Positions 1 through 64,000 of a stretch of 64,000 nucleotides of DNA are shown here, piece by piece (position 1 is the stretch's first letter; each line of letters opens with the position of its first letter). Under the pieces are notes generated by a model, which searched no databases, was not told where the DNA came from, and saw nothing but the letters and a program-made list of their open reading frames with translations. Source of the DNA: Dictyostelium discoideum. Lineage: Eukaryota. The stretch is from NCBI GenBank assembly GCA_000004695.1, contig CM000154.2, forward strand, positions 3,200,001 through 3,264,000, read 5' to 3'. Position numbers and translations under genes: made by a program.

Positions 1-2459
1 TAGAGCATGTTGATAATGTTAGAAAGTTTTTCAGATGTATTGGTTTAATGTTTTCAACAACGATTCCAACAGTTACATTACCACAGAATCGTATCTATAG
101 AATCCAAGATATCACCAGAAATACCCATGAATTCACCGAGGGATGTGGTGAAATTGGTCCAGAACTTGCTAAACATTTAAATGAAAATTATAATTTCAGA
201 CCATCAACATGTGCATATCAAGTTAGAATAGGTGGAAATAAAGGTGTGTTGGTGGTAAACAATCAAGCACCCGATCCATCTGGTATTTATATTAGACCAA
301 GTATGGTGAAATTCAATCCAATCGATTGTGGTGATGAACATAGAACATTAGAGATTTGCAGTGTTTCGACAACTTCAAGATGTAAATTAAATAGACAAGT
401 CATCAGTTTACTCTCAACATTGGGTACACAAGATAATGTTTTCTTTGCATTACAAGATCATTATCTAAATCAAGTGGCTCAAATCGTAAATGATACCAAT
501 GCTTCCAAACAAGCAATCGTTGAATTCTTTCCAGATATTACAGAGGGTGAACTTTATCAAGATCCTTACATTCGTAGAATTTTAATTAGTCTTTATAAAT
601 TAAAAATGGAGAGAATTCAACAAAAATGTCATATAGAGATTAAAGATAGTAGAATGTTGTTGGGTGTTTGTGATCCAACAAATTCATTACCACCAAATAC
701 TGTATTTGTTCAATTGGAAGAGGAAGATGAAGATGATGATGATGATGGTCGTAAATATGAAAAAGTAATCGAAGGATTGGTAATGGTAATTAAAAATCCT
801 TGTACTCATCCTGGTGATGTAAGATATCTAAAGGCTGTTGATAATATAAGATTAAGACATTTAAGAAATGTATTGGTTTTCTCAACAAAAGGTGACGTAC
901 CAAACTTTAAAGAAATTTCAGGTTCAGATTTAGATGGTGATCGTTATTTCTTTTGTTACGATAAATCATTGATTGGTAATCGTTCAGAATCAGAGACAGC
1001 CTATTTAGTTGTCGAGACCGTTTCAAACAATGATAAAAAGGCCAATGTTTTCAATGATCCATTTGCTTTATCCTCAATGTACTCTACAAATGCTGAACGT
1101 CAAGAACTTGGTAAATTGTATCATTCACATTTGGCAATCTCTGATCAATACGGTGCAAATCACAAATATTCAATTCAAATCTCTAAAGAATGTTTTAAAG
1201 AAATTGATTATCCAAAAACTGGTATTCATGGCACTATTCCAAAAGAAGTAAACATTCGGTTACAAACTGTAGGTTATCCACATTATATGCAAAGAGAGAA
1301 TTCAACCAGAGTCTATTATCAATCGAAAAAAATTATGGGTAAAATGTATGATCAAATTGATCAGTTGGTTTATATTGGTGATTTCTTACCAAATATTAGT
1401 CTTGATAAAAGTAATTTGGTTGATGGCTATGAAATCTATTTAAATAGTGCTAAAATCTTATATAGTCAGTATAAACTTCAAGTTCATTCATTGTTAAGAC
1501 ATTATTCAGCAGAATCTGAAGAATCTATAATGATTGGTTTCCTTGATCAAGGTTTCATTAGTGATAAAGTTTCAAAAGATATCAAAGGTGAAATGAAAAA
1601 TGATTACATTAAAATTCAACAAACTTTTGAAAATGAGTTTTTAAAGGAATTTGGTGAACAACACAAAGAGAATTGTTTATTGATTCATAGAGTAAACATT
1701 GAAAAGAAGGTTTCAGCTTGGTACCATGTTGCATATAGTGATTTGAAAGATGATAGAGCATTAGGTTTCTATTGGATTGCTCGTTCGTTCAAACAGATGA
1801 CATTGGATCAAGAAAGTCAAAAGAAAAAAAATATTTTGGTTAATAGCATCTTGGATCATATGAACAAAAAAAAAGATACTTTATTCCCATTATACGAAAG
1901 TCGTTTATTGATTGTCAAAGAATTAACATCATTTTTAAATACGTTAAATGATACAGTATTTAAAGAATCAACATTGGAAATTATTGGTTCAACCGCTACA
2001 ATGTTATTTGATGAAAATTCAAATTTAAATTTATACTTAAAACTAGAGAATCAAAATGATCATATGAATTTAGCTGAAAAGAACGAAATTTTAAATCAAT
2101 TAAAAGATGAAATTAAAACATCCTCTTTTATATCAGCTGAAGCTTGTTCAATTATCAAGATCCAAGGTGACATTCCATTATTTAAATTCAAAATAGATAA
2201 AATTCAATGTTTAATTGGGCTTGAAACTAGTAAATGGTATGAAACATTGGTACAACAACAATACATTACTAAAAATCCTTCAATTTTATCAATATTGTTT
2301 TCAATCATTGATTGGAGTATTAATTCATTGTTTGTTGATAGTGAAACTGGTGAAATTATAAATAATTCAAAGGTTTATTCATCTTTAAACCTTCAAAAAG
2401 TTATAGTTGAGAATTCAATGATACCAAGTATATTCAATAATAAAAATCATAACAATAAC

Positions 2460-2555
<96 letters not shown>

Positions 2556-3356
2556 CATAGTGTAAAGAATCTTACAAAATCAAATTTGTTCTCTTTGTTA
2601 ATTGATTTTTGTATTATCAACAAGTATATAGATAAATGTAATCCAAATGAACTTACAAATACTACATCCAATTTAACAATTGGAAATTGGGTGAAATTGA
2701 TAGAAATAGCTTCAAGATACTTTTCAGTGGATAATAATAACAATAATAACAATAAAGGTCATAAAAGAAAGAAAAACAAAAATTTGGATGAATATAATAC
2801 AAATAATTTAGGTGATACAATCTTATCATTTTTTAGATTCTATTCAGATAGTTTTGGACGTTCAATCTATGGAAATGAACCATTCATTATTAAATTGTTT
2901 TCTAAAGATGCCAATGATATTGAAAATCAAATACTCAATCCTTCAACTGAATCACATAAAACTGCTTTATTATTTTATCAAGAATCATTTAGACATGCAT
3001 TTCATTCTCTTAGTACTTTTGTTAGCGTTGAAGAGTTCTTATCAAATTGTTTAAAAACTACAAAAAAAATAATGCCAATTAAAAAAAATCAAATTAATCT
3101 TTTACAAGAGAGAAGTGTAAATGAAGAAATAGTTAAAAATGTTCAATTATGTGGTTGTAGTATTAAAATTGATACAAATGTTAAAAATCCTTATATTTTA
3201 ATCGATGGAAAACCACAACAAATAAGATTGGCTCAAAATGCAATTAGAGATCTCTTGTCTATAAAAACTGAAAACTATAATTTGGCCATCACAAAAAGAA
3301 ATAATAAAAGAAAGAATTTTACATTGGGTGATTTTGCTAAAAATAAAATAAAATAA
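1..3356 (+). CDS. Cellular RNA-dependent RNA polymerase (RNAi-type RdRP), C-terminal ~1100 aa. The frame is open to the window start, so the true 5' end lies upstream. Contains a 37-residue poly-Asn insertion.
   Basis: Frame of ORF 48..3356 has no stop back to nt 3. The ISGSDLDGDRYFFCYD catalytic motif (DxDGD signature of eukaryotic RdRPs) is present, with surrounding conserved blocks (NPCTHPGDVR, LVFSTKG). Confidence 0.8.
2455..2553 (+). repeat. (AAT)n microsatellite encoding poly-Asn inside the RdRP CDS
   Basis: Uninterrupted aat triplets visible in the sequence; in frame with the CDS. Confidence 0.9.
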
Positions 3357-3631
3357 ATAAAATCTTTTTAGAAAGAGTTCCTTTTAGTTTCCATCTATAT
3401 TTTTATTTTAAAAGTAATTTATTTAATTATTTATATTAAAATTAAAAAAAAATTGACCAAATTTAATAATATATAAAAATAAAAAATAATTATAAAAAAT
3501 AAGTACAAAATTTATTATATTATATTTTAAACACAAATCCACTCAAAATAATCATTTTAATATATATTCAATAATTGTTTTTGGTGGGAAGGTAATTTTT
3601 TTTTTTTTTAGATCAAAAATAATAAATTAAC

Positions 3632-4266
3632 CTAAATAATTAAAATTGTCGAGAATAAAATTATAGATAAAATAAAATTTATATTGGTCTTTATGGATTC
3701 ATTTTTGATTTCATTGTTAATTAAACTATTACCACCAATTTTACCATTAATTGTAATGTTAACAAATTGTTGTTGTTGTTCAGTTTGATTAATATTAAAA
3801 TTTGAAGGTTCTACAAAACATGAAATCGATGTTGAATTTATAAATGTAGAGTTTAAACATTTACTTTTACCAACTGTAATTAAATCAATTTCATTATAAA
3901 ATTCATTACCAAAAATTGTAAAAATTCCACCAATTGATGAATTCGAAATCGTTGAATTTAAAACTAATGGGGGATAATATGATATTGAAATGTTATACTT
4001 TTCATCTTTACCATTAAATTTGATTTTACAAAGTTGATCAAATGAACCTTCTAATTTAATATCACATGCAATAGTTAGTTTATAAATGAGCAATTGTAAA
4101 CTTGTTTATTTGAAAAGCAATATACAGATGTATTGTAAATTGTATTTTCATTAAAATTTTCACTGATAATCAATAATTCACCACCAGTGGAGTTGAAAAC
4201 AGTGGATTGATTTACAAAATTAATCAATGGTCTAATATCAACATTGTAGTTTACCAAATTTATCAA
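3632..4266 (-). CDS. 3' part of a gene for an N-glycosylation-sequon-rich secreted or membrane glycoprotein with a hydrophobic C-terminal tail (GPI or TM). Two ORFs in different frames overlap at 4075-4093, implying a frameshift or sequencing error.
   Basis: ORFs 3632..4093 and 4075..4266 are both dense in NxS/T sequons and Cys, and end in [14 protein letters not shown] stop lies immediately upstream of 4266 with a possible acceptor (atattag), so further exons probably lie upstream. Confidence 0.3.
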
Positions 4267-4527: not shown

Positions 4528-5682
4528 CTACCCAACTACACCTACGTCAACACCTGAATAACTAATTATTATTCTTGTGCAACTTGATAAACTTTCATTT
4601 ATTTTACTGCCATATAGATTTCTAAAAAATCTATAAAGAACCAAAGGAGTGAGGAATAGGAAATTGACTTTGAAAAGTATTGGAGCTAATGAGAGTGAGG
4701 AAACAATGAACCAAGATCTATCTAAATGAGGATTAACTAAAAAACTTGGAAATGGAATTTTGTTTAAAATTTTCTTTACCTTTTCATCATAAGTTTGTTT
4801 GAAATGATGTTGATTTGCAATTGATAAAATACCACTAGATATACTTACAGCTTGAGTGTATGCCAATCTATATATTTTGTTATTTGATATTGGTTTTCTA
4901 AATCTTGATGTTAGCACCATAAAAAAATATCCAAATAAATATCCACCTGCAAATTCAAGTAAAAGTTTCTCTCTTACACGCTCTTTTTCAATGTAATCAC
5001 TACTCTTATAAAGAGCAGAAATGAATCTACTAATGATGACTATATCAGATTTTTTTGTACAATATTTTGAATATTCTGCTGTACCACGATCTGATGGTCC
5101 ATTTAAATAGTTTAATTGTTGAGGTAATTCAATTGGTGGTAAATTATTAGCTTGTCTATATTTAATTGTAAGTTTAATGATTAATTTATAGAATGCAGCT
5201 GGATCAATACTATAGTTTGTAACTGCATAGTATTTAAATGGATTTGATATATTATTTGATTTTCTGCCTACTCTTTCAACACGTTTATACCATGATGGAT
5301 ATTGATTCGGATCGGTTGAAGGGGAATCAATACTACCACATTGATTATGTTTCATTAAATAGTCTATACAATATTGGTATATACCACTTTCAATTAATTT
5401 TGAACTTACAATTGCATGTTCACCAAATGTTTTGAATATAAAATGATATGCATCCTTATCACTAAGTTGATAAATGATTTTCTTTGAAATTAAATTATAA
5501 TCTTCTTTTGTTAAACGACAATATACTGAATTATATAATACTGGTACTTCATCAATTAACTGAGCTGGACATTTATAATTAAAATCATAACTTGTGAGTT
5601 CATAAAAAAAAAGTGCTATTGACATAAAATAAATAATTCTTAAAGTTTTAGAATCTTTTTTAATAAATTCTTCTTCTTTTTT

Positions 5683-5753
<71 letters not shown>

Positions 5754-6144
5754 CTTTATTATCATTATTATTATAATTATTATTTTTATTATTATTATCA
5801 TCATTATTATTTTTATTATTATTATTAAGACTTTCTAAATCTTGTTTAGTTTCAAATGGTGTTTTAAAAATAAAAGGATTTTTTAAAATTTGTTGTTCAT
5901 TATTAATATTTAATTTTGAATCTTCTTTTTCATTAAATTTTTTAAAACCAGATTCCATTGATAACGAATCACTATTGTTATTTTCGTTTTTTTTTTCTTT
6001 TTCTTTTTCTTTATTTAAATCTTTAGTAGGTTTGAAACCAAATGATCTATAATATAAACCACTATTTTTTGATATTAATTTATTGTTGAAAAATCTACTA
6101 AGATTTTTTATTTTTGAAATCTGCATTTTTTTAATTATCACCAA
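4528..6144 (-). CDS. Hypothetical 538-aa protein with predicted TM segments and an internal poly-Asn; paralog of the adjacent gene
   Basis: Long ORF that shares blocks with ORF 6289..7908: [38 protein letters not shown]. Confidence 0.6.
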
Positions 6145-6288: not shown

Positions 6289-7908
6289 TTATTTATAATA
6301 TGAATTATCTATCAATTGATTTTTTAAAGGTATGATAGTAGTTGAAATAAAATAAGGAATAATAAAATACAATCTTGATGGAATAAATAATAATGGAACC
6401 ACGGAAATTGAAAATCTGTACCAAGCATTAAAATGTTTATCAAAATCTTTTGGTTCAAATATTGAAAAATATTTAATATAGAGTTCTTTGGCATCGAGAT
6501 TAAAGATTTGTTTATTGGTTTTATCATTTAAAATTGTAAGTAATACTGTGATTATTAAGGTGCTATTTACATTAAGCTTTCTATTACCACGAAATACTGG
6601 CATCCAATTGGTTAATTTATTTCTTCTAACTCTAAATGACATATATGCTAAAGTTACCAATGAAGTAATTAATACATTTTCAATTAATCTCTTTTTTTGA
6701 CTCTCTCTAATTTCTTTTGTAGATTTTAAAGTTTGAATTACATTATGATATGGTTTTTCTTCAGATTTTACTGCACTATTAATTTGATTTTGATTTAGTG
6801 TGGTGGTGGTAGTTGTAATAGTAGTAGTTGTCATTGTTCTAGTAGTAGTGGTAGAAGTAGTAGCAGTAGGTTCTATTTGACTAATAGAATCATCACTATT
6901 AATAAATTCTTTTATTTGATCAGGAATTTCAATTGGTGGTAAACCATACTTTTTATTATAACCTTGAGTAATCATAATGATTGCTTTATAAAATTTTAAA
7001 ACTAAAATACCATTATAATAGGTTGGATTTGATTTAACTAATGCAGGACTCAAAGAATTTATTGGTAAATCTATATCTGGATAATTATTGATATGTTTCA
7101 TTATATAGTCTAAACAATATTGATAGATTCCACTCTCAATTAGGGATACACGTGAAAATGAACTAAAATAAAAACAACGGACAATGAATTTCTCTACTAT
7201 TGAATCATTTGTTTGATATGCTAATTTCTTTGAAAAAATTTCATAATCTTCTTTTGTTAAACAATTAAAAAACACTGTTGATATTAAAGTTGAATTTGAT
7301 CTTAAATTAGAGAATGGACCAAAATTTGTAACTATTAAATAAAGTGAAATCAAAAATATACCAAACAACCTTAAAAATATTCTACCTGCTGCTCCCCAAA
7401 GGGTTTCTGGTGGTGGTAATTCTTTTTCTTGTTTCTCTTTTTCTTGTTTTTCTTTCTCTTCTTTTTCTTTTTCTTTTTCTTTTTGTCTTTCTTCTTCAGT
7501 TTGTTCTTTTAATTCTGATGGTAATTTTAATATTAATGGGTTTTCATTTAAATTTGTTGGCACTTGAGTATTTTCTAATTTTATTTTTTTTATTTTATTA
7601 TTATTATCATTATTAACTGATTCAAATTGATTTAATGTTGAAAAATTTCTATTTTTAAAAAATAATGATTGTGATTGTGATTGTGATTGTGATTGTGATT
7701 GTGATTGTGATTGTGATTGTGATTGTGATTGTAAATTATTATTTGTTAATAAATTTATTTTATTTTTTAAATTAAAAGAACCATATGGTTGTTTTAATTC
7801 TATTAATTTTTTATTAAATAATAGATTATAATTTATCGATTTTAATTTATTAATATTATTTGAACTAAAATTATAAATCTTCATTTTTTTATTTATTGTT
7901 GGTGCCAC
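6289..7908 (-). CDS. Hypothetical 539-aa protein, tandem paralog of 4528..6144. Carries a (QS)10 repeat and a KE-rich tract.
   Basis: Same conserved blocks ([25 protein letters not shown]) and same orientation, 145 bp downstream of the paralog's start. Confidence 0.6.
7668..7732. repeat. (TGATTG)n hexanucleotide repeat, about 11 units, encoding (QS)n on the minus strand
   Basis: Direct reading of gattgtgattgtgattg... Confidence 0.9.
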
Positions 7909-8155: not shown

Positions 8156-8186
8156 CGTTCTATTTGAAAAAAATAGAGAAAATTAG

Positions 8187-8260
8187 TATTCAGAGCGGGA
8201 ATCGAACCCACGACCTAATCCGTGTTAAGGATTCGTGATAACCGACTACACCATCCGAAC
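8187..8260 (-). tRNA. tRNA-Val (anticodon AAC)
   Basis: Reverse complement folds as a cloverleaf: acceptor GTTCGGA/TCTGAAT (two G-U pairs), D-arm GTGT..CACG, anticodon stem AATCC/GGATT with loop TTAACAC, T-arm GTGGG-TTCGATT-CCCGC, discriminator A. Close to metazoan tRNA-Val-AAC. Confidence 0.85.
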
Positions 8261-37700: not shown

Positions 37701-40700
37701 TTAAGCATCGAAATTAAAAGTATCTATTCTTGAATGCATTGTTTGTTTGCTTCTCATTACAATTGTTAAAGCTTTAGCGGCTACATTAATATCTTTTTTA
37801 TTTATATCTTCAGATTCAGTTGATTCGCATTGTTTTTCTTTTTCTTTTTCCTTTTCTTTATCTTTATCGGATGATTTTGAAGTTTTCTTTTCTCTTCTAC
37901 TACCAGATTTTGAAGGGGTAATATCCAATTCAATACCACTTGGAGTAGTGATGGTGATTGAAGAGGTATTAGAATTTTCAGATTGTTCAGAGATAGTGGT
38001 GATGGAACTAGAATCATCAGTATTTTCTTTTGTACCTTTTAGACGTCTTCTTTGTTTAAAAGCATCACCATCTCTAACTGATTGCATGATATCTTCAACC
38101 ATACCACCATCACCAACAGAAGTTGAACTTGAAGCCAATGGATTTTTATTATTTGTACTTGAGGCTATTTTACCATTCATTCTCTTTAATTGTTGAGCTT
38201 TCTTTGCTTTTGCTTCATCCCTTTTAATTGCACGTTCAGCAGCTTCTTTATCTCTTTGGAAATCTTTATAACATTTATCAAACATAACGATGAAACGATT
38301 GATTGTAACAAAGAATTCCTCAGAGGGTATTTTAGATTCTTCACCAAATAACACTGCCAACTCTTGGAAATTCTTTTCTGCTTCTTGAAATTGATCAAAT
38401 GCAATCTTAATTTCAATATTTGCATCCTTTATGAAATCATCCATAGTTGAGAAGAAATAAGACTCCTCTTTACTTCTCTTCATTTTACCAATACCATTAT
38501 TAACGGCGTCTAAATCCTTTTTAAGTAAATTTAAATCTGCACTAATTGTATTCATTGAGATTTTAACACATTCTTGAACACCTGATAAATCATCCATAAA
38601 TTTGAGAGAATCTGGGAATTTTTGCTCCAATTCACTAATAATGTAAACTAAAAGATTTGATTTATTATTTGCAGTTTTAGTATCGGCCAATTTAAGTAAT
38701 GCATCCAATTTGAAACCAAAACAATCACCTCTTGCGGTACCACCATTTAAAAAGTTACCAATGATTAAAACCACTTCCATAACCTTTAAAAAGTTTTTAC
38801 TATTTTTTATATCTTTAATTGTTTTTGTGAATAACTCTAAATCTGGTTTAATCTCTTTAAGTTTATCTGGGAATAAAATTTTCAAATAGAATGATTTAAC
38901 TCTTTCTGCTAAACTACTAACTGAATCCATTTCCAATAGAAAGTGTTCTGCTTTGGTTAACATTTTCAATTCACCATCTTTTTTAAGATAATCTTTAATC
39001 GCTTCCATATCTTCATCAGTTGGTAAATATTGTTCCAATGCTTTCAATGATTCCATCGTAAAGATATCTTCATCCAATGTGTATAATGCAGTTTTAATCT
39101 CTTCTAGTGGACATTTAAACTTTGAGAGATAGATTGCTAAATTTTGAGATTTCTTTGGATCAATAACTGATACTGTACCTGGTTTAGTTGATGATGTTGA
39201 TTTCTTATCTGATGCTTCCAATTTCTTTTGAGAATTTGCTTCTGGTGCAAAGAATAAATTTTCAATCTCACCAACATTTAACCAATCCGTCTTTATAGTA
39301 CCAAGATTTGTAAATATAGTTTCACCCAATTTCTTATTTGGAATTTTTGTCCATTGGAATTGTTTAACTTTTGTAGTTGGTTTTGATACTGTGAATTTTG
39401 GTGCATTTGCTGGTGGTTTATTTGAATTAAATAATCCAAATCCACCTCCACCTGGTGGTGGTGGTGGTCCGCCTTTACCTCCCATTGGTGGTGGTGGTGG
39501 TGGTCCACCTCCCATCATTGGAGGTGGTGGTGGTGGTGGTGGTCCTCCTCCTCCCATCATTGGAGGTGGTGGTGGTGGAGGTGGTCCTCCTCCCATCATT
39601 GGTGGAGGTGGTGGTGCTGGTGGTGCAGGTGGTGGTGTTGTTACAATTGGTTCTTCTTTAATAATTTGTGTTGGTTCTGGTGTTAATGTTGATTCTATAT
39701 TTTGTTGTTGTGGTTGTTGTTGTTGTGCTACTTCAACTTGTGATTTAAAATCATTTGATAAACTATCAGAAGATGAAGATGATAAATTTGATTTTGATTT
39801 TTCTTTTAATTGTGATGATGAAATTGGTGGTTTTGATGATTTTGGATTTAAAGGTGGTTTTGATGTTTGTTGTTGTTGTTTACGTGGTGATTCATGATGT
39901 GGTGAAGATTCTTCAGGTGTATTAATAACATTTATATGATCATCACCATCACCACCAGGTGGTGAAAAGAAATTTGAATCAATTCTTTTCATTTGACCAC
40001 GTAATTTAATAATTTCTTGATCTTTTTGTTTTACAGTATTAAACATATTACTTTTGAGTACAGATGATTCATGACTTCTAGAGGAGAGTTCTTGATTTGC
40101 AATGTTTAAATCAAAGTTTGCTTTTTTCAATTGATCTTTAACCTTTGCCAATTCTTCTATATTCTTTTGAAATTCAGATTGAAGTGCAACAGAGGGTGCA
40201 GTACTTGCCAAAAGATCCTCTAAACTAACTTTACCATCGTCATCACCAATCATTGGTTTATTGACAGAGATTTGTAATACCAACTTTTCAATGAGGAACC
40301 AACTTAACATACCCACTTCAGTATCGGAAGATATTGATAACAATGATTGGAGTATTGCCAATAGTGGATGATGTAATCTGTCTTTGGCCTGTTTATAGAT
40401 TTCATTAAAGATCACTTGAGGATCATTGATATCAATATCTAAATCCTCGAAACGTTCCGATAACTCCTCTTGATCAGCACGTTGTTCATCTTCATAAACA
40501 TCTATTTGTGTGAGTAAATCGGGAGCCTCTTCATAGGGAATATTTTTATTTACACTAATTACCTCATCCAATCCCAATCTTGTAAACTCAGTTCTCAATT
40601 GAATACGTTCATCGATTTCCTCTGATGAATTTACAATACCATTGACCAAAGTTAAACAAGTTGTTAAATACTCCTTATCTGATGAATTCATTACTTTCTT

Positions 40701-41478
40701 CATTGATTCCACTAAAAATGTAAATCTAAAACGTTCCTTACGAACTTGTTTAAAGTGTGTCATTGCCTCTAGAATCAATTGATAACCTTTCTCTGAGATC
40801 ATACATATCGCTGTCAATATTTCAAATACACTCGATCTTGTATCCGCTTTTGGTGTATCCATTGATGTGATTAACCTAATCATTGAATTGGGTGTTGCTA
40901 TCGCTTTCTCTATACCATACTTTGAGTTTAACAATGATAATAAACATGTTACCGCTAACGATTGTAATATAACATCACTATCCTTTTGACCATTCCTTTC
41001 AATGAATGCTAATACATTCAATAATGCCTCTATACCATTACAATCTATCAATGACTTTGACCATGCTGATGGTTTACTCTGTAATGATGAACATAATTGT
41101 GCCAAAATTTCAATATTTGGTAATAAATTAATTGTATTTACAAAAAATTCTGGTGTATCAACTGCTTTACCTTTCTAAAAAAAAAAAAATAAAAAAAAAT
41201 AAAAAAAAATAAAAAAATAAAAATTTTATATTAATAAAATAATAATATTAGTAATTATAAAATAAAAAAAAAAAAAAAAAAAAACATACATCATCAAATT
41301 TATCAGCTGATTTTGAATTTGTTGAATTATTTCCATCTGGTTGAAGACTTGAATATGCCATAGAATAACGTTTATTTGCTTTGGCTGGTAATGAAGATAA
41401 AAAATCATTCTCTGACTCTGTTGATCCTTTTTCGTCTGAATCTTTATCTTTTTTCTTTCTACCAAAAATTCTATTCAT
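37701..41478 (-). CDS. Formin (GBD/FH3 - coiled coil - FH1 poly-proline - FH2). Exons about 41290..41478 and 37701..41174.
   Basis: FH1 is runs of GGGPPPPPPPPMMGGG. The FH2 core is VVLIIGNFLNGGTARGDCFGFKLDALLKLADTK. N-terminal armadillo-like GBD/FH3. The upstream exon MNRIFGRKKKDKDSDE...KFDD has a GTATGT donor and ttttttag acceptor, and joins in frame to KGKAVDTPEFF.... Confidence 0.8.
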
Positions 41479-45706: not shown

Positions 45707-45732
45707 TTGCTCTAATTTTTTTGATAAAAAAG

Positions 45733-45804
45733 CTCCCCATTCGGGAATCGAACCCGAGGTACCAGTGTGAAAGACTAGAGTGTTACCGACTACACCAATG
45801 AGGA
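45733..45804 (-). tRNA. tRNA-Glu (anticodon UUC)
   Basis: Reverse complement TCCTCATTGGTGTAGTCGGTAACACTCTAGTCTTTCACACTGGTACCTCGGGTTCGATTCCCGAATGGGGAG. Anticodon stem CTAGT/ACTGG with loop CTTTCAC, T-loop GGTTCGATTCC, acceptor TCCTCAT/ATGGGGA. Confidence 0.85.
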
Positions 45805-46113: not shown

Positions 46114-47559
46114 ATGGTCAGAGCCGATAATAATAGTAGTACAATAACAGAAGAAGAATGGGAAAGTTACGATGAAGAAGATTTAAATGAAAATCAACAA
46201 GATGATGATTATTCAAGTGATGAAGATGAATATGACGAGAATGCAATTGTTTTCAATGAAGAAGATTTTGAAGATTTGGAAGACTTAATGAATGAATTTG
46301 AACAAAATAAAAAAGAATTTGAAGAGAACCCAAAATCAATGGAAGAGAATATTAAATCTGCTGATAAGAAATTAAAAGAAACCACTACCAAAACAAATAA
46401 AAAATCAACACATTTGGATTCAAAACAAAAACCACCACAAAAAAAAAAAACTGATGAAAATTTTGATAAAAAACAACAAAAGACCAAAACCCAAGAACAA
46501 ACACACACACAACAAAAAAAACAACAAAAAGTAGAACAACCAATAAAAAAAGAGGAAAAAACAACAAATAAAGATAAAAATAATAATAATAATAAAGATA
46601 AAAAACCACAATCAACAAAGAAACAAACTGAAAATATTGTTAAAAAGGAACAACCAAAACTAGAAAAACCAAATAACAACACTAATAATAATAATAATAA
46701 AGAGCCAGAACAAACTCAACAAGATGAATTTTTTATTAAACCAACTAAAAATATTGATGATTTCTTCCTTAGCAATAAGAATGATGATAAAAAAGATTCT
46801 GATTCAAAATCAACTGAAAAAGTTGAACCAAATTTAAAATTCAACCCAAAACCATACGAAATTGAAAGAAAACCATATATAAAATCAACAATAAATACAA
46901 CCCAAATTCAAAATAATAATAATAATAAAACTTTTAATAATAACAATAATAATAATAATAATAAAACTTTTAGTAGTAGTATTAATAATAATAATAAAAA
47001 TAATAATAATGAAGAAACATTCCATAATAATTATAAAAATAATTATAAATTTAAAGAGAATCGTAATTTTAATGGAAATAGTACAGGTAGAGAATTAACA
47101 GAGAAAGAGAAATTAAATAGATTTAAAAGAATTGCAAGTCATAGTAAAAGTCAAAAGAAAATTGAAGAAAGAATTAATGAAAGTATAGATTCAAAAAAAA
47201 GAAATATGGAATCATTATTTGTTACATCTTTAAATGATGATAAAGCAGTTAGAATGAAAAAGAAACAACGTTTAGGTCAAAGAGCTAGAAAATTATTAGC
47301 TGAGAATATATTTGGTAAAGATGCAAACCATCTTAAAAATTCAAATCCAAATTCAAATTCAAACCCAAATCCAAATCCAAATCCAAATAATAAAAATAAT
47401 AATACAAAAACACCAACAACAACAACACCAACAACAACAAAAACAACAGCAGCACCTGAAAAATCTCATCCATCATGGGAAGCAAAGAAAAAACAAAAAA
47501 TTTCGACAACAATCCAAATTGGTAATAAAAATAATGATATAGTTACTTTTGATGATTAA
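46114..47559 (+). CDS. Acidic/lysine-rich nucleolar-type protein, BUD22/SRFBP1-like
   Basis: Acidic N-terminus (EEEWESYDEEDLNENQQDDDYSSDEDEYDE) and K-rich middle. The C-terminal HPSWEAKKKQK...IVTFDD matches my recollection of the conserved BUD22-domain C-terminus (LHPSWEA...FDD). Confidence 0.45.
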   Translation: MVRADNNSSTITEEEWESYDEEDLNENQQDDDYSSDEDEYDENAIVFNEEDFEDLEDLMNEFEQNKKEFEENPKSMEENIKSADKKLKETTTKTNKKSTHLDSKQKPPQKKKTDENFDKKQQKTKTQEQTHTQQKKQQKVEQPIKKEEKTTNKDKNNNNNKDKKPQSTKKQTENIVKKEQPKLEKPNNNTNNNNNKEPEQTQQDEFFIKPTKNIDDFFLSNKNDDKKDSDSKSTEKVEPNLKFNPKPYEIERKPYIKSTINTTQIQNNNNNKTFNNNNNNNNNKTFSSSINNNNKNNNNEETFHNNYKNNYKFKENRNFNGNSTGRELTEKEKLNRFKRIASHSKSQKKIEERINESIDSKKRNMESLFVTSLNDDKAVRMKKKQRLGQRARKLLAENIFGKDANHLKNSNPNSNSNPNPNPNPNNKNNNTKTPTTTTPTTTKTTAAPEKSHPSWEAKKKQKISTTIQIGNKNNDIVTFDD

Positions 47560-56262: not shown

Positions 56263-57939
56263 TAGAAATATTCAACATCCAAATATAGTTCAATTTATTG
56301 GAGTTTATTATGAACCATTAGCAAGTCCATCTTTAGTAAATAGATTATTAAATTCAAGTTCAACATGGATTGTAACTGAATATATTGGCGGTGGTAATTT
56401 ACATGAAAGAATTAAAGATACTAAAAAAGATTTTCCAATTGAATTAAGAATTAAATTATCTTTAGATATTGCTTTAGCAAGTATGTTTTGTTTTTTTTTT
56501 TTTTTTTCATATAATATATTCTTTTTTTAAAATATTAATAATAAATTTAATTTTTTTAAAAAATATATAGTGGCATATTTACATAGTAGAGATATTATAT
56601 TTAGAGATTTAAAAAGTAAAAATATTTTAATTGATGATTCATCTTCACCAATTAGAGGAAAAGTTTGTGATTTTGGGTAAGTTTTTAATTTTTATTATTA
56701 TTAAAAAAAAGAATTAATATATATTAATATTTAATAAATTTTTTTTATTTTTTTTTTATTTTTAAAAGTTTTGCAAGAATTTTAAATAAAAAACAACAAG
56801 GTAATAGACATTTATCAATTTGTGGAACAGACTCTATAATGGCACCAGAATTAATATTAGGTATGGAATATGATGAATCAGTGGATATATTTTCATTTGG
56901 TGTAGTATTGTTAGAGATGATATTACGTAAAAAAGTATCGAAAGTTTTAGAGAGAGGACCACAATCAGCCTTTGAAATTGATCAAGATTCAGCACGTCAA
57001 TTAATACCAGATGATATTCCAGTACTTTATTCAGATTTAGCATTGGATTGTATAAAATATCAACCAGAGGAGAGACCAAATTTCTCACATATCATTCATG
57101 TATTGAAACAATTGACTTCATTATTCCCTGTGGTTCATACATTTGATAATCCATTATCACCAACTTCATCACCAATCACTCCACGTAAAAATTCTTTAAA
57201 TTCACCTTTTACAAAATCAATGAGAATGAACTCTTTTGATTTTAACCTATCAAATATAGTTTCTTCAACAAGCGTTCAAAATAATTTAAAAAGTCAAAAT
57301 TTAAATTTTACTTTATTAAATTTAAATCAAATTAATAATCAAGATTTAAATGAAAATAATAATAATAATATAAGTAATAATATAAATAATATAAATAATA
57401 ATAATAATAATTTAAATGATTGTAATAGTAATTTAAGTAGTAGTACAAGTACAATATATAATGATTCACAACAAACAATAATTGATGAAGATGAATTAGA
57501 TAAAGAAGAAGAAGAAAATAGAAATAAAGTTAATAATTTAAAAGAGAAAATGTTATTGGTAATGGGTGAATTTGATATTTATATTAATAAAGTTGGTAAG
57601 GAATTATTATTAGTATCGGAAGAGGATCATATCTCTCAAAAATATGATGAATGTAGAAAAGTTATCGAAATTAAAAAGGTTTTAGGTGAAGTTATTGAAA
57701 GTGATATGAGTAATAGTCAACAATCAAATACTCCAAGAAAAAATTCAAATGTTACAAATTCCCGTGTCGCTTTGTTTTTGAAATCAATGGAACGTTCACT
57801 CAATGAAATTTATTCAAGCTCTGATGTATTAAAACAAAGAATTGTAAAAGAAGATGATTTGGTTGAATCTTTATTATTGGCTAGAGTGGTTTCAAAAATA
57901 AAAAAAATTCATTTATCATCATTGGATATTAATAATTAA
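55902..57939 (+). CDS. Serine/threonine (TKL-like) protein kinase with an Asn-rich C-terminal extension. Exons 55902..56149, 56266..56480, 56571..56676, 56769..57939.
   Basis: GSGAYGIVY and VAIKK (subdomains I-II) in exon 1, HRDLKSKNILID and DFG in exon 3, APE and DIFSFGVVLLEM in exon 4. All junctions use GTAAGT/GTATGT donors and AG acceptors, with phases matching. Confidence 0.7.
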
Positions 57940-59580: not shown

Positions 59581-59686
59581 AACGCGGTTTACAACATTTA
59601 CAAAATCATTCTTAAAAAAAAAGTTGGATAACGCAATTAATTTTTTTAAAACTAATAGTGAAAATTTTTTTTTAAATCATCAACAT

Positions 59687-59759
59687 GTCAGGTTGGCTCA
59701 GTTGGTAGAGCGTAGGTCTCATAATCCTAAGGTCCAGAGTTCGATCCTCTGACTTGACA
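59687..59759 (+). tRNA. Elongator tRNA-Met (anticodon CAU)
   Basis: GTCAGGT-TG-GCTC-AGTTGGTA-GAGC-G-TAGGT-CTCATAA-TCCTA-AGGTC-CAGAG-TTCGATC-CTCTG-ACTTGAC-A. Full cloverleaf with the 31:39 U-U mismatch also seen in metazoan elongator tRNA-Met. Confidence 0.85.
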
Positions 59760-59791
59760 TTCATTTTTTGTGAAGAAGTCCCTAAAATCAA

Positions 59792-59804: not shown

Positions 59805-59965
59805 ATTTAAATTTTTTAACGAAAAACGAAAAAAGAAATAAACGAGAATTTATACATATAATAAATAAATCACTGTTATATCTTCACCGCCACATTCATT
59901 CCTCTTAATTTTACCCTTTTTTTGCTCATTAAAGCAAGGGCTATCGTCCTATATACTTTTCAACA

Positions 59966-61174
59966 ATGGCTGATGATCACTCAACTGAATTACAGTTAAA
60001 TCATACAGATAACAACACAACCAATACAAATAACACCTCCACAACCTCAACAACAAAAAACAAAAGTGCAAAAATCGACACACCTAAAAAACAAACCCCA
60101 ACAAACCAACTCTCACTAAACAAAGGACTTGATAATCAATTAGATATCATTGCACCTCCATCAATCACAAGACCACTCTCTTTCTTAGAAAAAAACAATA
60201 ACACCATCAACATTAAGTGTTACTTTAATCAACCACACATCCGTGAAGAATTAACCTCAAAAGATGACACAAGAATTCAACAAATTCACAAAAACATTCA
60301 CAAACTCTTCGAAGTTATACTGTCGCCATCAGCATTCAAAATAATTGGTGCAACTGCCTTCGTAAATTGCAACGTTGATAAATTAACTTCAATAATCAAC
60401 CTTCAAAACCAACTTGCACTAAATATCGACAAACTCAACTATAGATTCGATATATCATCAAATGATTATGCAATCATTAAAACATTCATTAAAACGTACT
60501 CACCCAAACATGCAAACGATGCAATTACAAACAACCTCACTAAATTCACCAGTTGTACATCAATTGAATCATTTACTGTCACATACTCATATGCTGTTGC
60601 GTTTAAAAGCTACATTATAACATACCATCTAATTGATCACACACACAACATTGTTGATCAAAAGATCGAACAACCATCTGGTATCACAAGATATATCAAA
60701 GCTGCAACACGTAGTGTCACTAAACACAAAATTCAACATGCAAAAAATGCAGATATGGCAACAACTATAAAAAATGCTATCACAAACCCAAACATGAACA
60801 AAAACAATCAACCACCAAAAAACAACATTAACACCCCACCAATCAACGAAATTGCAAATTCCAATCGCAATAAAAACTCACTTCAAAATAGTGGTTCAAA
60901 AGCTATACTAAATGAATCACTTGATATTAACAATCAATCCCAAAACAATAATGAAATTTCACACAAAAGTGATTCTTCAAATAATAATAACGGGAAAAAC
61001 TCATTATCAATGAGCAATCCAACCGATCCAACAATTGTACCACAAAAACCTCTACAATCTCAACCAAACAAACCAAGTGCACCAACTCCAAATCCAATAA
61101 ATACAAGAAGAAGCAGCAATGCCCTGACTACACAACCAGTCAATACTGGTGCTGCCAAACCTAGTAAGGTATGA
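59966..61174 (+). CDS. Retrotransposon ORF1 (402 aa; Thr/Asn/Pro-rich nucleic-acid-binding-type protein)
   Basis: ORF listed in the track. Its stop TGA overlaps the ORF2 start in an ATGA arrangement. Confidence 0.65.
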   Translation: MADDHSTELQLNHTDNNTTNTNNTSTTSTTKNKSAKIDTPKKQTPTNQLSLNKGLDNQLDIIAPPSITRPLSFLEKNNNTINIKCYFNQPHIREELTSKDDTRIQQIHKNIHKLFEVILSPSAFKIIGATAFVNCNVDKLTSIINLQNQLALNIDKLNYRFDISSNDYAIIKTFIKTYSPKHANDAITNNLTKFTSCTSIESFTVTYSYAVAFKSYIITYHLIDHTHNIVDQKIEQPSGITRYIKAATRSVTKHKIQHAKNADMATTIKNAITNPNMNKNNQPPKNNINTPPINEIANSNRNKNSLQNSGSKAILNESLDINNQSQNNNEISHKSDSSNNNNGKNSLSMSNPTDPTIVPQKPLQSQPNKPSAPTPNPINTRRSSNALTTQPVNTGAAKPSKV

Positions 61175-64000
61175 GCTCAAAAATCAACTTTATAACATGG
61201 AATTGTAGAGGATTCACTGAAAACGCAAACAATCAACACAATTCCTACCAAAAAGCTGTTGACACACTACAACTACTTATATCAAAACTTCCACCTCGTC
61301 CAACAATCTCAATACTCACTGAACTCAATTCATCACCATTACAACTTAAACATGATTTTCCCGATCACATCATCTCTGTCACCAAAAGAGGAAATGGTGT
61401 AATAATCATTAACCATAACCCAAACACACTCAAACTCAAACACATATCAACAATTGATGGTAGAGCTATTTTAGCAGACGTTATATTTCCAAATCAATTA
61501 CCAATTGGTATTCTTGGAATTTACGCACCAGCATCAAATAATACCATCAAAAAGAATTCATATGCAACTTCACTACAAACACTTCTCCACAACCACTCAA
61601 CAAACCCAATACCAAACCAATCCCAACATGTATCTATTATCGCAGGAGATTTCAACTGTATCCACAACGACAATTCACTATTAGATGATATTATCCAATC
61701 CTACACATACCAACACCATCTAATTGATCAAGGTGAATTTAAAAACACTCCAACTCATACACATGGTAACAGATTAGATAGAATATATACCCAATACAAT
61801 AGAATAGACCCTGAAAATATATATACACAAGTCCACCAAATTCCATCTTCATTATCAGATCATAATCCAATATCAACAACAATTTCTTCACCTTTTCAAA
61901 TAAATAAACATAAGAAAAGATGGATATTATCACCTGGTACTGCAAATGACCATGAAGCAATCAATATTATCAATCATTTAATAACTAATCACAATAACAC
62001 ATCAATCAATCAATTTACAAACTGGTCAAAAGTAAAATCAAAAATTATTAAAACTCTAAAAAACTATCAATATAACAAAGACAAACAAACTCAACGTGCA
62101 AAACAAATACTATTAGAAAAAGCAGGAAAATTCAAACATCTTGAAGAACAATGCATCGCTGAATACAATATTATATGTAACAAAAACAAATTACATCAAA
62201 ACCACACAAACATATTAAAAAAACATATAAATGGAGAAATACCTAGCAAGTATCTATCAGCAATACTAAACAAAAGATCAAAAGATGCAAAAATTGAATC
62301 AATCCAATATGGCAACATCATTACATCCGACCCCGACCAAATTGAAAATGCGTTTGTTGAATTCTACACAAATCTATATAGCTTACAAATATGTTGTCCA
62401 ATTACTCACCAGCTCATGCTAAACACATGGCCCATCATAAAAAATGAATATTGGAATGGTTTAGACTCACCATTTATACAAGATGAAGTTGAAGCTGCAA
62501 TTAAAACCTGTAACCCCAACAAATCACCCGGTCCAGATGGCGTTACAAATGCATTCTACATTAATCATTTAAACCAAGTTAAACCAATTCTCACTACATT
62601 ATTCAACGATATACTAGAAAATCCTCACCACATCACAACAGAATTCACCGAAGGTCTTATACACACAATTTACAAGAAAGGCAACCCCTTACTCATATCA
62701 AATCGTCGTCCCATTACACTTCTTAACACTGATTACAAGATCCTCTCAAAAGTAATCAATGCACGTCTTCTGAGAATACTTCCTTTCATCATCAACAACA
62801 ACCAAACTGGTTTCGTACCCCACAGATTCATCATAGACAACATCATCAACATCAATGAATTAATAAACTACCTCAAATCTAAAAACCTCCCTGGTATCAT
62901 CACACTATTTGACTTCTTTAAAGCATTTGATTCTATCTCTCACGATAGCATTAAAAGAACATTAATTCATATTGGAATACCAATAAAATTAATAAATTTA
63001 ATCCACAAGCTATTATCTGACTCACAAGCAAAAATTTCAATTAATGGTAAAACGACCAGAAAATTCGATATTAAAAGAGGTGTAAAACAAGGTGACCCAA
63101 TCTCAGCCACTTTATTTGTAATTGTAATTGAAATATTAGCAAGAACAATAAATGCAGACAATTCAATAATTGGATTACCAATTTCACCCAATCCACAAAT
63201 TAAAATCAAATTTACCCAATTTGCAGACGACTCTACAACATACAACATCAACTACGAACAACAACAACAATCAATAATCAAACATTTCGATAATTTCTGC
63301 GCTTCAACATCATCATCTTTAAATTTTGACAAAAGTGCAATTATAGAAATCAACCCCCACAAAATCACTGATAAACACTTAATAAACAACATTCCACAAT
63401 CAAAAAGAATTCCAATAACCAAAAAAGATCAATCAGAAAGAGTTCTTGACTATTTCTTTAATCATAATGGTTTACATAGGAAATTACCAGAAACAATGAA
63501 AACACTGATTAAATCATTAGTGCTATGGAAAACTATTGGTACAACATTAAAAACAAAAACAACCATCATAAACACCTACTCACTATCACCAATAACATAT
63601 TTATCATACCTTGAAGAATTTACAAAAGATGAAGAAATTCAAATTAATAAATTAATCTCATGGTTTATGAATTCTCCCGCAAATTCTGAATCACCAACTC
63701 TCAATACCAATTCCATTGAAAACAACACATCAACCATCCATTCACGTGCAAAAATACCTTTGATGTGTTATGATAGATCATTAAAACCATTAAAAGAAGG
63801 TGGTTGGGGTATGTGGAATATACAATTACGACAAGTTGCTCAAAAGATTTGGATATACAACAGATTTTTACAAATGCATAAATCTGCAAACAATTCAATA
63901 TACATGATAAGTTGGATGGATCAAATCATCAACAAATCAATCTCTTCTCCATACCTTATAAAAATAAAAAAAGAATGGGAAAACTATGCAACTCAAATTG
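61171..64000 (+). CDS. Retrotransposon ORF2 (APE-type endonuclease plus reverse transcriptase), 3' partial (over 940 codons with no stop before the window end)
   Basis: By hand translation, the frame starting at ATG 61171 reads MSSKINFITWNCRGF... with no stop I could find before the window end. It includes the SDHNPI endonuclease motif (about 61860), and PGPDG, FDFFKAFDSISH and QFADDSTTY (the FADD equivalent of YxDD) RT motifs (62530-63230). It is absent from the ORF track only because it has no stop inside the window. Confidence 0.75.
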   Translation, partial: MSSKINFITWNCRGFTENANNQHNSYQKAVDTLQLLISKLPPRPTISILTELNSSPLQLKHDFPDHIISVTKRGNGVIIINHNPNTLKLKHISTIDGRAILADVIFPNQLPIGILGIYAPASNNTIKKNSYATSLQTLLHNHSTNPIPNQSQHVSIIAGDFNCIHNDNSLLDDIIQSYTYQHHLIDQGEFKNTPTHTHGNRLDRIYTQYNRIDPENIYTQVHQIPSSLSDHNPISTTISSPFQINKHKKRWILSPGTANDHEAINIINHLITNHNNTSINQFTNWSKVKSKIIKTLKNYQYNKDKQTQRAKQILLEKAGKFKHLEEQCIAEYNIICNKNKLHQNHTNILKKHINGEIPSKYLSAILNKRSKDAKIESIQYGNIITSDPDQIENAFVEFYTNLYSLQICCPITHQLMLNTWPIIKNEYWNGLDSPFIQDEVEAAIKTCNPNKSPGPDGVTNAFYINHLNQVKPILTTLFNDILENPHHITTEFTEGLIHTIYKKGNPLLISNRRPITLLNTDYKILSKVINARLLRILPFIINNNQTGFVPHRFIIDNIININELINYLKSKNLPGIITLFDFFKAFDSISHDSIKRTLIHIGIPIKLINLIHKLLSDSQAKISINGKTTRKFDIKRGVKQGDPISATLFVIVIEILARTINADNSIIGLPISPNPQIKIKFTQFADDSTTYNINYEQQQQSIIKHFDNFCASTSSSLNFDKSAIIEINPHKITDKHLINNIPQSKRIPITKKDQSERVLDYFFNHNGLHRKLPETMKTLIKSLVLWKTIGTTLKTKTTIINTYSLSPITYLSYLEEFTKDEEIQINKLISWFMNSPANSESPTLNTNSIENNTSTIHSRAKIPLMCYDRSLKPLKEGGWGMWNIQLRQVAQKIWIYNRFLQMHKSANNSIYMISWMDQIINKSISSPYLIKIKKEWENYATQI

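Follow-up and report, generated by a model that had tools for sequence, protein, structure and literature searches.

The 3′ part of Dictyostelium discoideum rrpA: an RNA-dependent RNA polymerase core followed by a nucleotidyltransferase fold predicted to be inactive and a KH-like tail

A 64,000 nt stretch of the Dictyostelium discoideum genome (GenBank assembly GCA_000004695.1, contig CM000154.2, positions 3,200,001 to 3,264,000 of the forward strand; hereafter the window) opens within an RdRP (RNA-dependent RNA polymerase) gene. The locus raises two questions: which RdRP gene is it, and what does the long region between the polymerase core and the stop codon encode? Window positions 1-3356 on the plus strand are the 3′ part of rrpA (DDB_G0289659), the back half of a known RNA-silencing polymerase gene that has been under study since the early 2000s and is already characterized genetically. 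Its product is one of the three helicase-containing cellular RdRPs (rrpA, rrpB and rrpC) in the RNA interference (RNAi) machinery of D. discoideum. Four parts are joined in this one product: a helicase, an RdRP whose DLDGD motif is intact, a terminal nucleotidyltransferase (TENT) fold without the catalytic residues, and a KH-like domain. The best joint explanation of our results, which we hold with good though not full confidence, is that the 3′ part of rrpA encodes an RdRP, a dead TENT fold and a KH-like tail lacking the GXXG loop, in a protein that would be a single-chain counterpart of the RNA-directed RNA polymerase complex (RDRC).

The open reading frame (ORF) is uninterrupted from base 3 to the stop codon at 3354-3356 (1117 codons, plus strand) and has no intron within the window. 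A locus in assembly GCA_054883475.1 (L005; chromosome-scale record, 5.29 Mb) is 100% identical to window 1-3356 and reaches 3.7 kb upstream, where the gene contains one intron of ~70 nt. As this identical locus carries the rrpA product annotated at 2417 aa, the window contains the C-terminal 46% of RrpA (rrpA coding sequence, 3..3356, +), and ~54% of the protein is encoded upstream. The quantitative reverse-transcription PCR primers rrpA-01 and rrpA-02 (PMC4559204) match exactly, with zero mismatches, at 1095-1122 (+) and 1248-1276 (−), and thus place the rrpA-specific amplicon at 1095..1276 (+). Primer rrpB-01 has an exact site not in the window but in another locus, L002, to which rrpB-02 also matches with two mismatches. 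The Southern-probe primers #0035/#0025 (PMC3661229) lie at window 1653-2010 (+), and the computed ClaI-StyI fragment around this rrpA/rrpB probe (ClaI near 322, StyI near 2162) is exactly 1840 bp. The wild-type StyI/ClaI signals were published as 1840 bp for rrpA and 2779 bp for rrpB (PMC3661229, Table 2). Because the rrpA primers and the rrpA Southern fragment match the window while rrpB-01 matches L002 instead, we assigned the gene to rrpA. A previous sequence-only reading of the window had left the choice among the three rrp genes to such a comparison, which the paralogue-specific primers and the 1840-bp fragment resolve. It had also called for extension upstream, which recovered the 2417-aa gene via L005, added the helicase and completed the RdRP profile.

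The RdRP catalytic core occupies 12..1358 on the plus strand (aa 4-452; residues are numbered from the first codon in the window) and matches Pfam PF05183 with 395.8 bits (E 4.8e-118). Since only profile positions 118-582 of 582 are covered, the gene is cut on its N-terminal side by the window start; PF05183 is complete (1-582) once the upstream DNA is added. The catalytic DLDGD motif (927..941, +, aa 309-313) aligns with the DLDGD of plant RDR6-like and dictyostelid homologues. An RNAi-type RdRP with DLDGD in a gene truncated at the window edge, as the sequence-only reading had proposed, is therefore what we found, and the full-length protein does not lack the RdRP palm but is matched over the entire profile. 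The upstream part of rrpA encodes ResIII/DEAD and Helicase_C domains with the motifs GMGKT and DEVH. Among the 120 best RdRP matches, a long extension past the RdRP was present only in the two amoeba-like proteins.

What, then, is the extension? A stretch of ~400 aa, bounded by the RdRP and the tail, matches Pfam PF22600 (MTPAP-like nucleotidyltransferase palm) with 28.2-30.3 bits against a cut-off of 27. When a 16-sequence family profile (alignment A3) was compared with PDB sequences, TUT4 was matched at 6e-20, and TUT7, GLD-2, CutA, URT1, Trf4, Tailor, Cid1 and mtPAP were also found. The last 471 residues in the window, with the Asn runs trimmed, were modelled by AlphaFold2 (AF2) from the 16-sequence alignment. 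The mean predicted local distance difference test score (pLDDT) of the model is 77.5 and its predicted template modelling score 0.71, and the ordered parts reach pLDDT 85-95. Foldseek returned 86 PDB matches to this model at E<=1e-3, and the top 50 listed are all Cid1-type or non-canonical terminal nucleotidyltransferases. The best is GLD-2 (E 4.7e-8, target-normalised template modelling (TM) score 0.66), followed by CutA, TUT7, Cid1, TUT1, URT1, mtPAP and Trf4, in alignments of ~390-410 columns that span both lobes. The hG[GS] motif of the pol-beta nucleotidyltransferase (NTase) fold is present as GS at aa 662-663. The LGDTILSFFRFY helix (2808..2843, +, aa 936-947) represents the 'lG..Ll.FF.fY' motif of the PAP-associated lobe; its FF is (near-)invariant in A3, and in the comparison of the family profile with PDB the helix aligns with LGELWLGLLRFY of TUT4. 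Because Pfam PF22600, the family profile, the AF2 model and Foldseek agree, aa 610-1015 (1830..3047, +) are, as modelled, a bilobed Cid1-family terminal nucleotidyltransferase fold of the Cid1/GLD-2/TUT type, with an NTase lobe and a PAP-associated-like lobe.

The next question is whether this fold is still an enzyme. The family consensus in A3 reads GSS..LFD..SD[LIV]D[LIV] with a third Asp in 'CDIS', whereas RrpA has SNLNL and C-L-IG. The NTase signature GSTATMLFDENSNLNL (1986..2033, +, aa 662-677) retains GS, but Asn674 and Asn676 (AAT codons, 2022-2024 and 2028-2030) replace metal-binding Asp, and Leu737 (TTA, 2211..2213, +) occupies the column of the third catalytic Asp, so that 'CLIG' is found against the 'CDIS' of the family. 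All three Asp are kept in 12 of the 15 aligned relatives and the DxD pair in 13. RrpB is the same as RrpA at all three substituted positions, and degenerate triads are also seen in Tieghemostelium (SDLKL / ISIS) and in one further relative, P0131 (INLDL / VRIT). In TUT4, the catalytic columns of A3 correspond to the DxD and to the GDIS Asp of its C-terminal NTase module, which we take to be the catalytic one. At the same columns of the family profile alignment, the N-terminal NTase module of TUT4 has D-V-N, and Arg for the third Asp. The TENT folds of RrpA and RrpB are thus predicted to be pseudo-enzymes that lack nucleotide addition to RNA 3′ ends.

It could be argued that the RrpA TENT is still an active tailing enzyme that adds poly(A) or poly(U) to RdRP templates or products, like Cid12 or Rdn1. 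Most relatives have the full triad, the overall fold is kept with high model confidence, and RdRP-associated NTases are active in ciliates (PMC4066745). However, N674, N676 and L737 replace all three metal-binding carboxylates, and the same substitutions are present in RrpB. Furthermore, a loop of ~75 residues including 34 Asn is inserted where the two lobes join, and it is at this junction that the NTP-binding residues of Cid1-type enzymes sit. An active transferase is thus very hard to reconcile with the sequence, and we consider it highly unlikely. If the fold is a pseudo-enzyme, the transferase lobe of RrpA and RrpB would no longer add nucleotides.

Has the region past the RdRP then lost its function altogether? 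A decaying relic, that is, an inert spacer that gathered low-complexity inserts after loss of function in the Dictyostelium lineage, would explain why the active site is lost, why two low-complexity inserts are present, why the KH-like domain is without GXXG and why RrpA is without the ~400-aa further C-terminal extension that follows KH in relatives such as P0001. It would also fit published work in which knock-out strains for one rrp gene, or for all three, were viable and only mildly affected. The comparison of rrpA with rrpB speaks against such a relic. The ratio of non-synonymous to synonymous substitution rates (dN/dS) is 0.14 in the NTase lobe, 0.30 in TENT plus KH and 0.20 in the whole fragment, and the NTase lobe, whose ordered parts have a pLDDT of ~90, differs by only 3 non-synonymous changes in 190 codons. 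Moreover, both paralogues have kept an open frame for 500 codons, a pLDDT of 85-95 is reached in the ordered parts, and the hydrophobic-core motifs W771, FF944-945 and H1001 are (near-)invariant across the family. We regard the relic as improbable. In our preferred reading, the dead TENT lobe would most likely be kept as a module that holds the RNA 3′ end or the template, or as a scaffold, like the N-terminal NTase module of TUT4/TUT7.

RrpB was identified as P0121 (KAM9969012.1, D. discoideum, 2381 aa, locus L002), which is 94% identical to the window protein over 1115 aa in an exhaustive HMMER search; the same value, 94%, has been published for RrpA and RrpB (PMC3661229). At the DNA level, L002 is 96.8% identical to the window over 1-2482 and 88% over 2508-3637 by blastn, and nothing is shared beyond. 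As the flanks have nothing in common past 3637, L002 is a paralogous locus and not an allele; the possibility that P0121 is rrpA itself, taken from a different strain or species, was rejected on the basis of these unrelated flanks and of the rrpB-specific primer site. RrpB shares with RrpA the dead NTase triad and the KH tail, but it differs in its chromosomal flanks, in a poly-Asn tract that is 24 residues shorter and in carrying the rrpB-01 site and not those of the rrpA primers.

The 3′ flank at 3357..3637 (+) is common to the rrpB locus, and the rrpA/rrpB duplication stops abruptly at ~3637, ~280 bp past the stop codon (window 3357-3637 versus L002 17240-17605), which gives it a sharp 3′ boundary. 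The rrpB gene of GCA_054859355.1 has two mismatches to primer rrpB-02 (L002 15215-15242) relative to the AX2-based expectation, and an extra ClaI site near L002 15318 would split the expected 2779-bp rrpB fragment (2776 bp here). These differences suggest strain polymorphism in rrpB, as far as can be judged from the sequence. For RrpC, whose transferase site we sought to read, the published rrpC primers had no match among the sequences retrieved here, and P0131 is not RrpC.

The end of the protein contains a second folded element. A separate AF2 model of the tail from a 13-sequence alignment (pLDDT 79.8) shows a beta-alpha-alpha-beta-beta-alpha topology, with the same element order as in the first AF2 model: b1 KKIMP, a1 KNQINLLQ, a2 RSVNEEIVKNVQL, b2 SIKID, b′ YILID and a long a′ (aa 1071-1104). 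Foldseek searches with the tail model returned almost exclusively type-I KH domains, namely those of Nova-2 (KH3), FUBP1, BICC1, PCBP1/2, hnRNP K, KSRP, MEX-3C and vigilin, with target-normalised TM scores of 0.7-0.77, a root mean square deviation (rmsd) of 2.2-2.8 Å over ~70 columns and E from 2e-3. The family profile matched vigilin KH6 in PDB at E 2.8e-5, and sub-threshold KH_1 matches were found in 5 of the 13 family tails. The tail (3063..3314, +, aa 1021-1104) is therefore modelled as a type-I KH-like domain at the level of the fold.

The sequence-only reading had described the last residues, which include the peptide QLCGCSIKID...AIRDLL (aa 1048-1085, nt 3144-3257), as a small KH-like fold appended to the polymerase. 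The KH-like fold is upheld by the topology, the vigilin match and the type-I KH domains returned by Foldseek, so that the tail does have structural counterparts, but the GXXG loop is absent and the Pfam KH models stay below threshold. The word 'appended' is too simple, since a Cid1/GLD-2-type fold of ~400 aa with a dead site, on which the sequence-only reading had offered no interpretation, stands between the RdRP and KH.

The ligand of this domain is less clear than its fold. The loop that should hold GXXG is reduced to one residue between a1 and a2, and relatives have at most a single Gly. Together with the fact that Foldseek also returns KH-like subunits of the oocyte cytoplasmic-lattice and subcortical maternal complexes, these features would suit not a nucleic-acid binder but a protein-protein module, of the kind that KH-like domains lacking GXXG form elsewhere, linking RrpA to, for example, a Dicer-like or Argonaute protein. 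The best structural and profile matches (Nova-2, PCBP, hnRNP K and vigilin), on the other hand, bind RNA or single-stranded DNA, and the adjoining two RNA enzymes favor an RNA ligand. We consider a purely protein-binding role a serious contender, if somewhat the less probable one. Our favored reading is wide enough for both ligands, with the KH-like domain acting as an accessory surface that would contact RNA or protein.

The TENT fold is interrupted by two low-complexity loops. The uninterrupted Asn run comprises 34 residues (aa 817-850; 2451..2552, +; codons AAC AAT AAC (AAT)31), and Tandem Repeats Finder places the AAT array at 2436-2554. It lies in a predicted disordered loop (aa 780-854), with AF2 pLDDT <50 over model residues 171-213. 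Beyond RrpB, in which the run is shorter, more distant relatives have no insert there in A3. The second loop (2727..2801, +, aa 909-933), consisting of N7 and a Lys-rich stretch, also falls below pLDDT 50 (model residues 268-287) and is gapped in most relatives. Across its 64 kb, the window has 17 perfect runs of the AAT/ATT/CAA class with at least 8 units each, four of them of >30 units, and other ORFs carry (AAT)39 and (ATT)37. Because there are 17 such trinucleotide runs in the window, the poly-Asn is ordinary replication-slippage background of this genome and not a gene-specific feature; it would have expanded neutrally, by slippage, in a loop at the surface. The alignments with RrpB and the relatives, the low pLDDT of the loop and the comparable runs led us to reject a special insert. 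The 'giant poly-Asn insert' of the sequence-only reading is thus a routine tract. That reading had counted 37 Asn from (AAT)33; the tract is real, but the actual numbers are 34 and (AAT)31, as the count of 37 includes three Asn of the preceding NNKNH.

How widespread is this arrangement of domains? An exhaustive HMMER profile search with the TENT region over 1.84 billion cluster representatives (E<=1e-3) retrieved only 16 proteins, nearly all of 2000-3400 aa and matched at their C-terminal side. They include proteins of Acytostelium (three), Heterostelium, Synstelium (two), Tieghemostelium, and the liverworts Riccia sorocarpa and Marchantia paleacea, as well as environmental and transcriptome contigs. 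Homologues were missed by word-indexed searches, whether these used the C-terminal 471 aa by themselves or a two-sequence profile, and were found by the exhaustive search. In the relatives scanned with Pfam (P0122, P0123, P0133 and P0135), the domains again run from the helicase through the RdRP to the NTase. In our searches, the helicase-RdRP-TENT-KH architecture was found only in Dictyostelia, liverworts and a few environmental eukaryotes. One may picture this chain as an ancient 'RDRC in one polypeptide' of these groups, in which the transferase is active in most members but became a pseudo-enzyme on the D. discoideum branch of RrpA and RrpB and, whether independently or in parallel, also in Tieghemostelium and in one AT-rich organism; we give this evolutionary scenario an even chance. 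If it is true, the fusion would be nature's own 'Rosetta stone' for the partnership of RdRP and nucleotidyltransferase, and the active and dead versions in sister taxa would offer tractable genetics for a role of the transferase beyond tailing.

Several features of the relatives deserve mention. P0001 (aa 1165-1585), P0122, P0125, P0126, P0128 and P0134 have 300-450 aa past the KH-like domain that start with a conserved 'GGG(T)xLL(F)xG' and that matched no Pfam family where scanned. RrpA and RrpB end ~13 residues past the predicted KH helix and are without this extension. The liverwort proteins P0130, P0137 and P0138 (Marchantia paleacea) and P0133 (Riccia sorocarpa) are helicase-RdRP-NTase proteins with an intact NTase triad, and in the C-terminal profile search they group with the dictyostelid family and not with the plant RDR1/RDR6 type. 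The three neighboring M. paleacea gene models fall in one 90% cluster, which points to tandem copies or to fragmentation of the gene model. Contig L001 (648-8643, Logan SRR33858421) has two gene calls on one strand, separated by 118 nt: one for a DEAD/ResIII/Helicase_C protein of 1039 aa and one for the RdRP-NTase protein P0001 of 1585 aa. Together they probably make up a single helicase-RdRP-TENT gene that an intron or a calling error has divided.

The domain content suggests how RrpA might work. RrpA would be a single-chain counterpart of RDRC, in which the RdRP, helicase and transferase turn target transcripts into double-stranded RNA for Dicer. The papers on Dictyostelium RNAi that we consulted describe two domains only, helicase and RdRP, and do not discuss the TENT-like and KH-like parts. 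For an RdRP-nucleotidyltransferase fusion, the Dictyostelium and Marchantia literature that we searched, which left most subscription journals outside, yielded a single figure legend. That legend reads 'two RdRPs contain a PAP_NTPase domain' (bioRxiv 10.1101/2023.10.19.562841). The marginal Pfam NTase match is probably listed in automatic database annotation. What is new beyond the known gene is thus modest and concerns an under-described module: the TENT-KH unit is general to this RdRP family, dead in RrpA/RrpB and common to liverworts. For workers on Dictyostelium RNAi, it may be useful that the ~800 aa past the RdRP core are not an anonymous tail but a folded TENT-like pseudo-enzyme plus a KH-like domain; published knock-out designs and domain cartoons take in only the helicase and RdRP. 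As a separate line of evolutionary evidence, the fusion also supports the partnership of RdRP, helicase and nucleotidyltransferase that is known from fission yeast and ciliates.

A number of observations weigh against this interpretation. The Pfam NTase match is marginal at its lower end (28.2 bits versus 27), the PAP-associated family (PF03828) was not matched, and, in PDB, a single-sequence phmmer search with the tail brought up nothing but a spurious match to HSP90. The structural models come from shallow alignments (16 and 13 sequences), and the Foldseek TM scores of the TENT model are moderate (0.5-0.66 on target) with an rmsd of 7-9 Å, which is probably due to lobe orientation and loops. 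For the small KH-like domain, the Foldseek E is only ~2e-3 and the Pfam gathering score is not reached (KH_1, 15.3 bits versus 21.5; KH_Vigilin, 16.4 versus 27). The RrpA tail (KNQINLLQ-E-RSVNEEIV) has no GXXG loop and no Gly, only a single Glu between a1 and a2, and relatives have at most one Gly at this position (HGNE, RGAE). The dN/dS values derive from small numbers of changes (13 synonymous, 17 non-synonymous), and what looks like constraint could stem from gene conversion between the paralogues. The likeness to RDRC is deduced from domain content. Finally, the published knock-outs were built around the helicase and RdRP domains only, not the C-terminal 800 aa, and the literature searched contained no domain-specific mutants of the C-terminal module of RrpA.

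The far end of the window raises a further question, namely whether the proximity of an RdRP gene and a retrotransposon is meaningful. The non-LTR (long terminal repeat) element has an ORF1 at 59933-61171 and an ORF2 (Exo_endo_phos and RVT_1) that starts at 61168, is open at 63999 and is cut by the window end. Its start lies ~170 nt downstream of a same-strand gene for tRNA-Met(CAT) at 59686-59760, a position that we take to be typical of TRE3-type tRNA-gene-targeted elements. The distance to rrpA is 56 kb, with ~ten unrelated genes between. The sequence-only reading had found this spacing suggestive for transposon silencing. Dictyostelium RdRPs do control retrotransposons, RrpC being the paralogue that controls DIRS-1 (PMC3950715), and a functional silencing link at this locus might be imagined on that basis. 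The intervening genes and the setting of the element beside a tRNA-Met gene, the usual TRE target, argue otherwise, and RNAi acts in trans. Moreover, TRE5-A, the one TRE-family element for which the literature has such a test, was unchanged in expression in rrpA and rrpB knock-outs, and mobile elements make up ~10% of the D. discoideum genome (PMC4559204). The element is thus real but without an evident link to rrpA; the tRNA-adjacent non-LTR setting and the TRE5-A data led us to reject the contextual idea, and a local silencing link appears extremely improbable.

The rest of the window, with ~22% G+C, contains FNIP-repeat, formin and other genes typical of dictyostelids. Two adjacent ORFs at 4528-6144 and 6289-7908 (both −; 538 and 539 codons) have no Pfam match and share clearly similar stretches (including [IL]DY[IL]MKH); judged from their sequences, they look like tandem paralogues of an uncharacterized membrane-like protein. 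An N27 run is present in one and an (SQ)n run in the other, and the ORF at 6289-7908 is annotated as a 531-aa gene in GCA_054883475.1. Exact-product matches were found for the ORFs at 46114, 51908 and 6292-7884, and none for the S28 peptidase ORF, 4531-6126 and 56839-57936. The tRNA-Ser(GGA) called by ARAGORN at 39486-39563 (+) falls inside the formin ORF at 37701-41105 (−) and is probably a false positive, while tRNA-Val (8186-8260, −) and tRNA-Glu (45732-45804, −) are intergenic. The window start maps on CM142511.1 (GCA_054883475.1) to 3,288,055 via L005 and to 3,287,898 via L003, 157 nt apart. This discrepancy implies at least one indel relative to GCA_054883475.1 between window ~7.9 and 46 kb, which probably lies in a simple repeat.

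Comparison with known systems places these results in context. Relative to the published RrpA (DDB_G0289659), the gene is the same, the helicase and RdRP architecture is as published, and there is no sequence difference as far as tested. The other dictyostelid and liverwort proteins share the domain order and the KH-like element with RrpA, but most of them keep SD[LIV]D[LIV] and the third Asp, and several have a region past KH. Plant RDR6/RDR1 and other cellular RdRPs are 28-31% identical to RrpA in the core and keep DLDGD; unlike RrpA, plant RDRs are without the helicase and without the TENT-KH module.

The Cid1-family enzymes have in common with RrpA a pol-beta NTase lobe with hGS, the FF.fY helix and, as modelled, a PAP-associated-like second lobe. 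RrpA differs from them in its low identity (12-14%), its N/N/L triad, its two low-complexity loops and its covalent junction with an RdRP. The closest functional analogue of the RrpA TENT would be the inactive N-terminal NTase module of TUT4/TUT7, which is also matched by the family profile. The tail resembles the type-I KH domains of Nova-2 (KH3), PCBP1/2 (KH3), hnRNP K (KH3), FUBP1 and vigilin in its beta-alpha-alpha-beta-beta-alpha order but, unlike them, has no GXXG and has a much longer C-terminal helix (aa 1071-1104).

The most instructive comparison is with RDRC-type complexes. In 2004, Motamedi et al. reportedly described the fission yeast RDRC as Rdp1-Hrr1-Cid12, that is, an RdRP, a helicase and a Cid1-family nucleotidyltransferase. 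The RdRPs of ciliates act in small interfering RNA pathways in complexes with a Cid1-type nucleotidyltransferase, as Rdr1-Rdn1/Rdn2 in Tetrahymena and as Rdr-Cid pairs in Paramecium, and the Asp triad of these transferases is needed for function (PMC4066745). By domain content, RrpA is like the RDRC-type complexes in that RdRP, helicase and Cid1-family nucleotidyltransferase are physically associated, covalently so in RrpA. It is unlike RDRC in being one polypeptide of ~2400 aa, in the order helicase-RdRP-TENT-KH, and in that the transferase of RrpA and RrpB is without the catalytic Asp residues.

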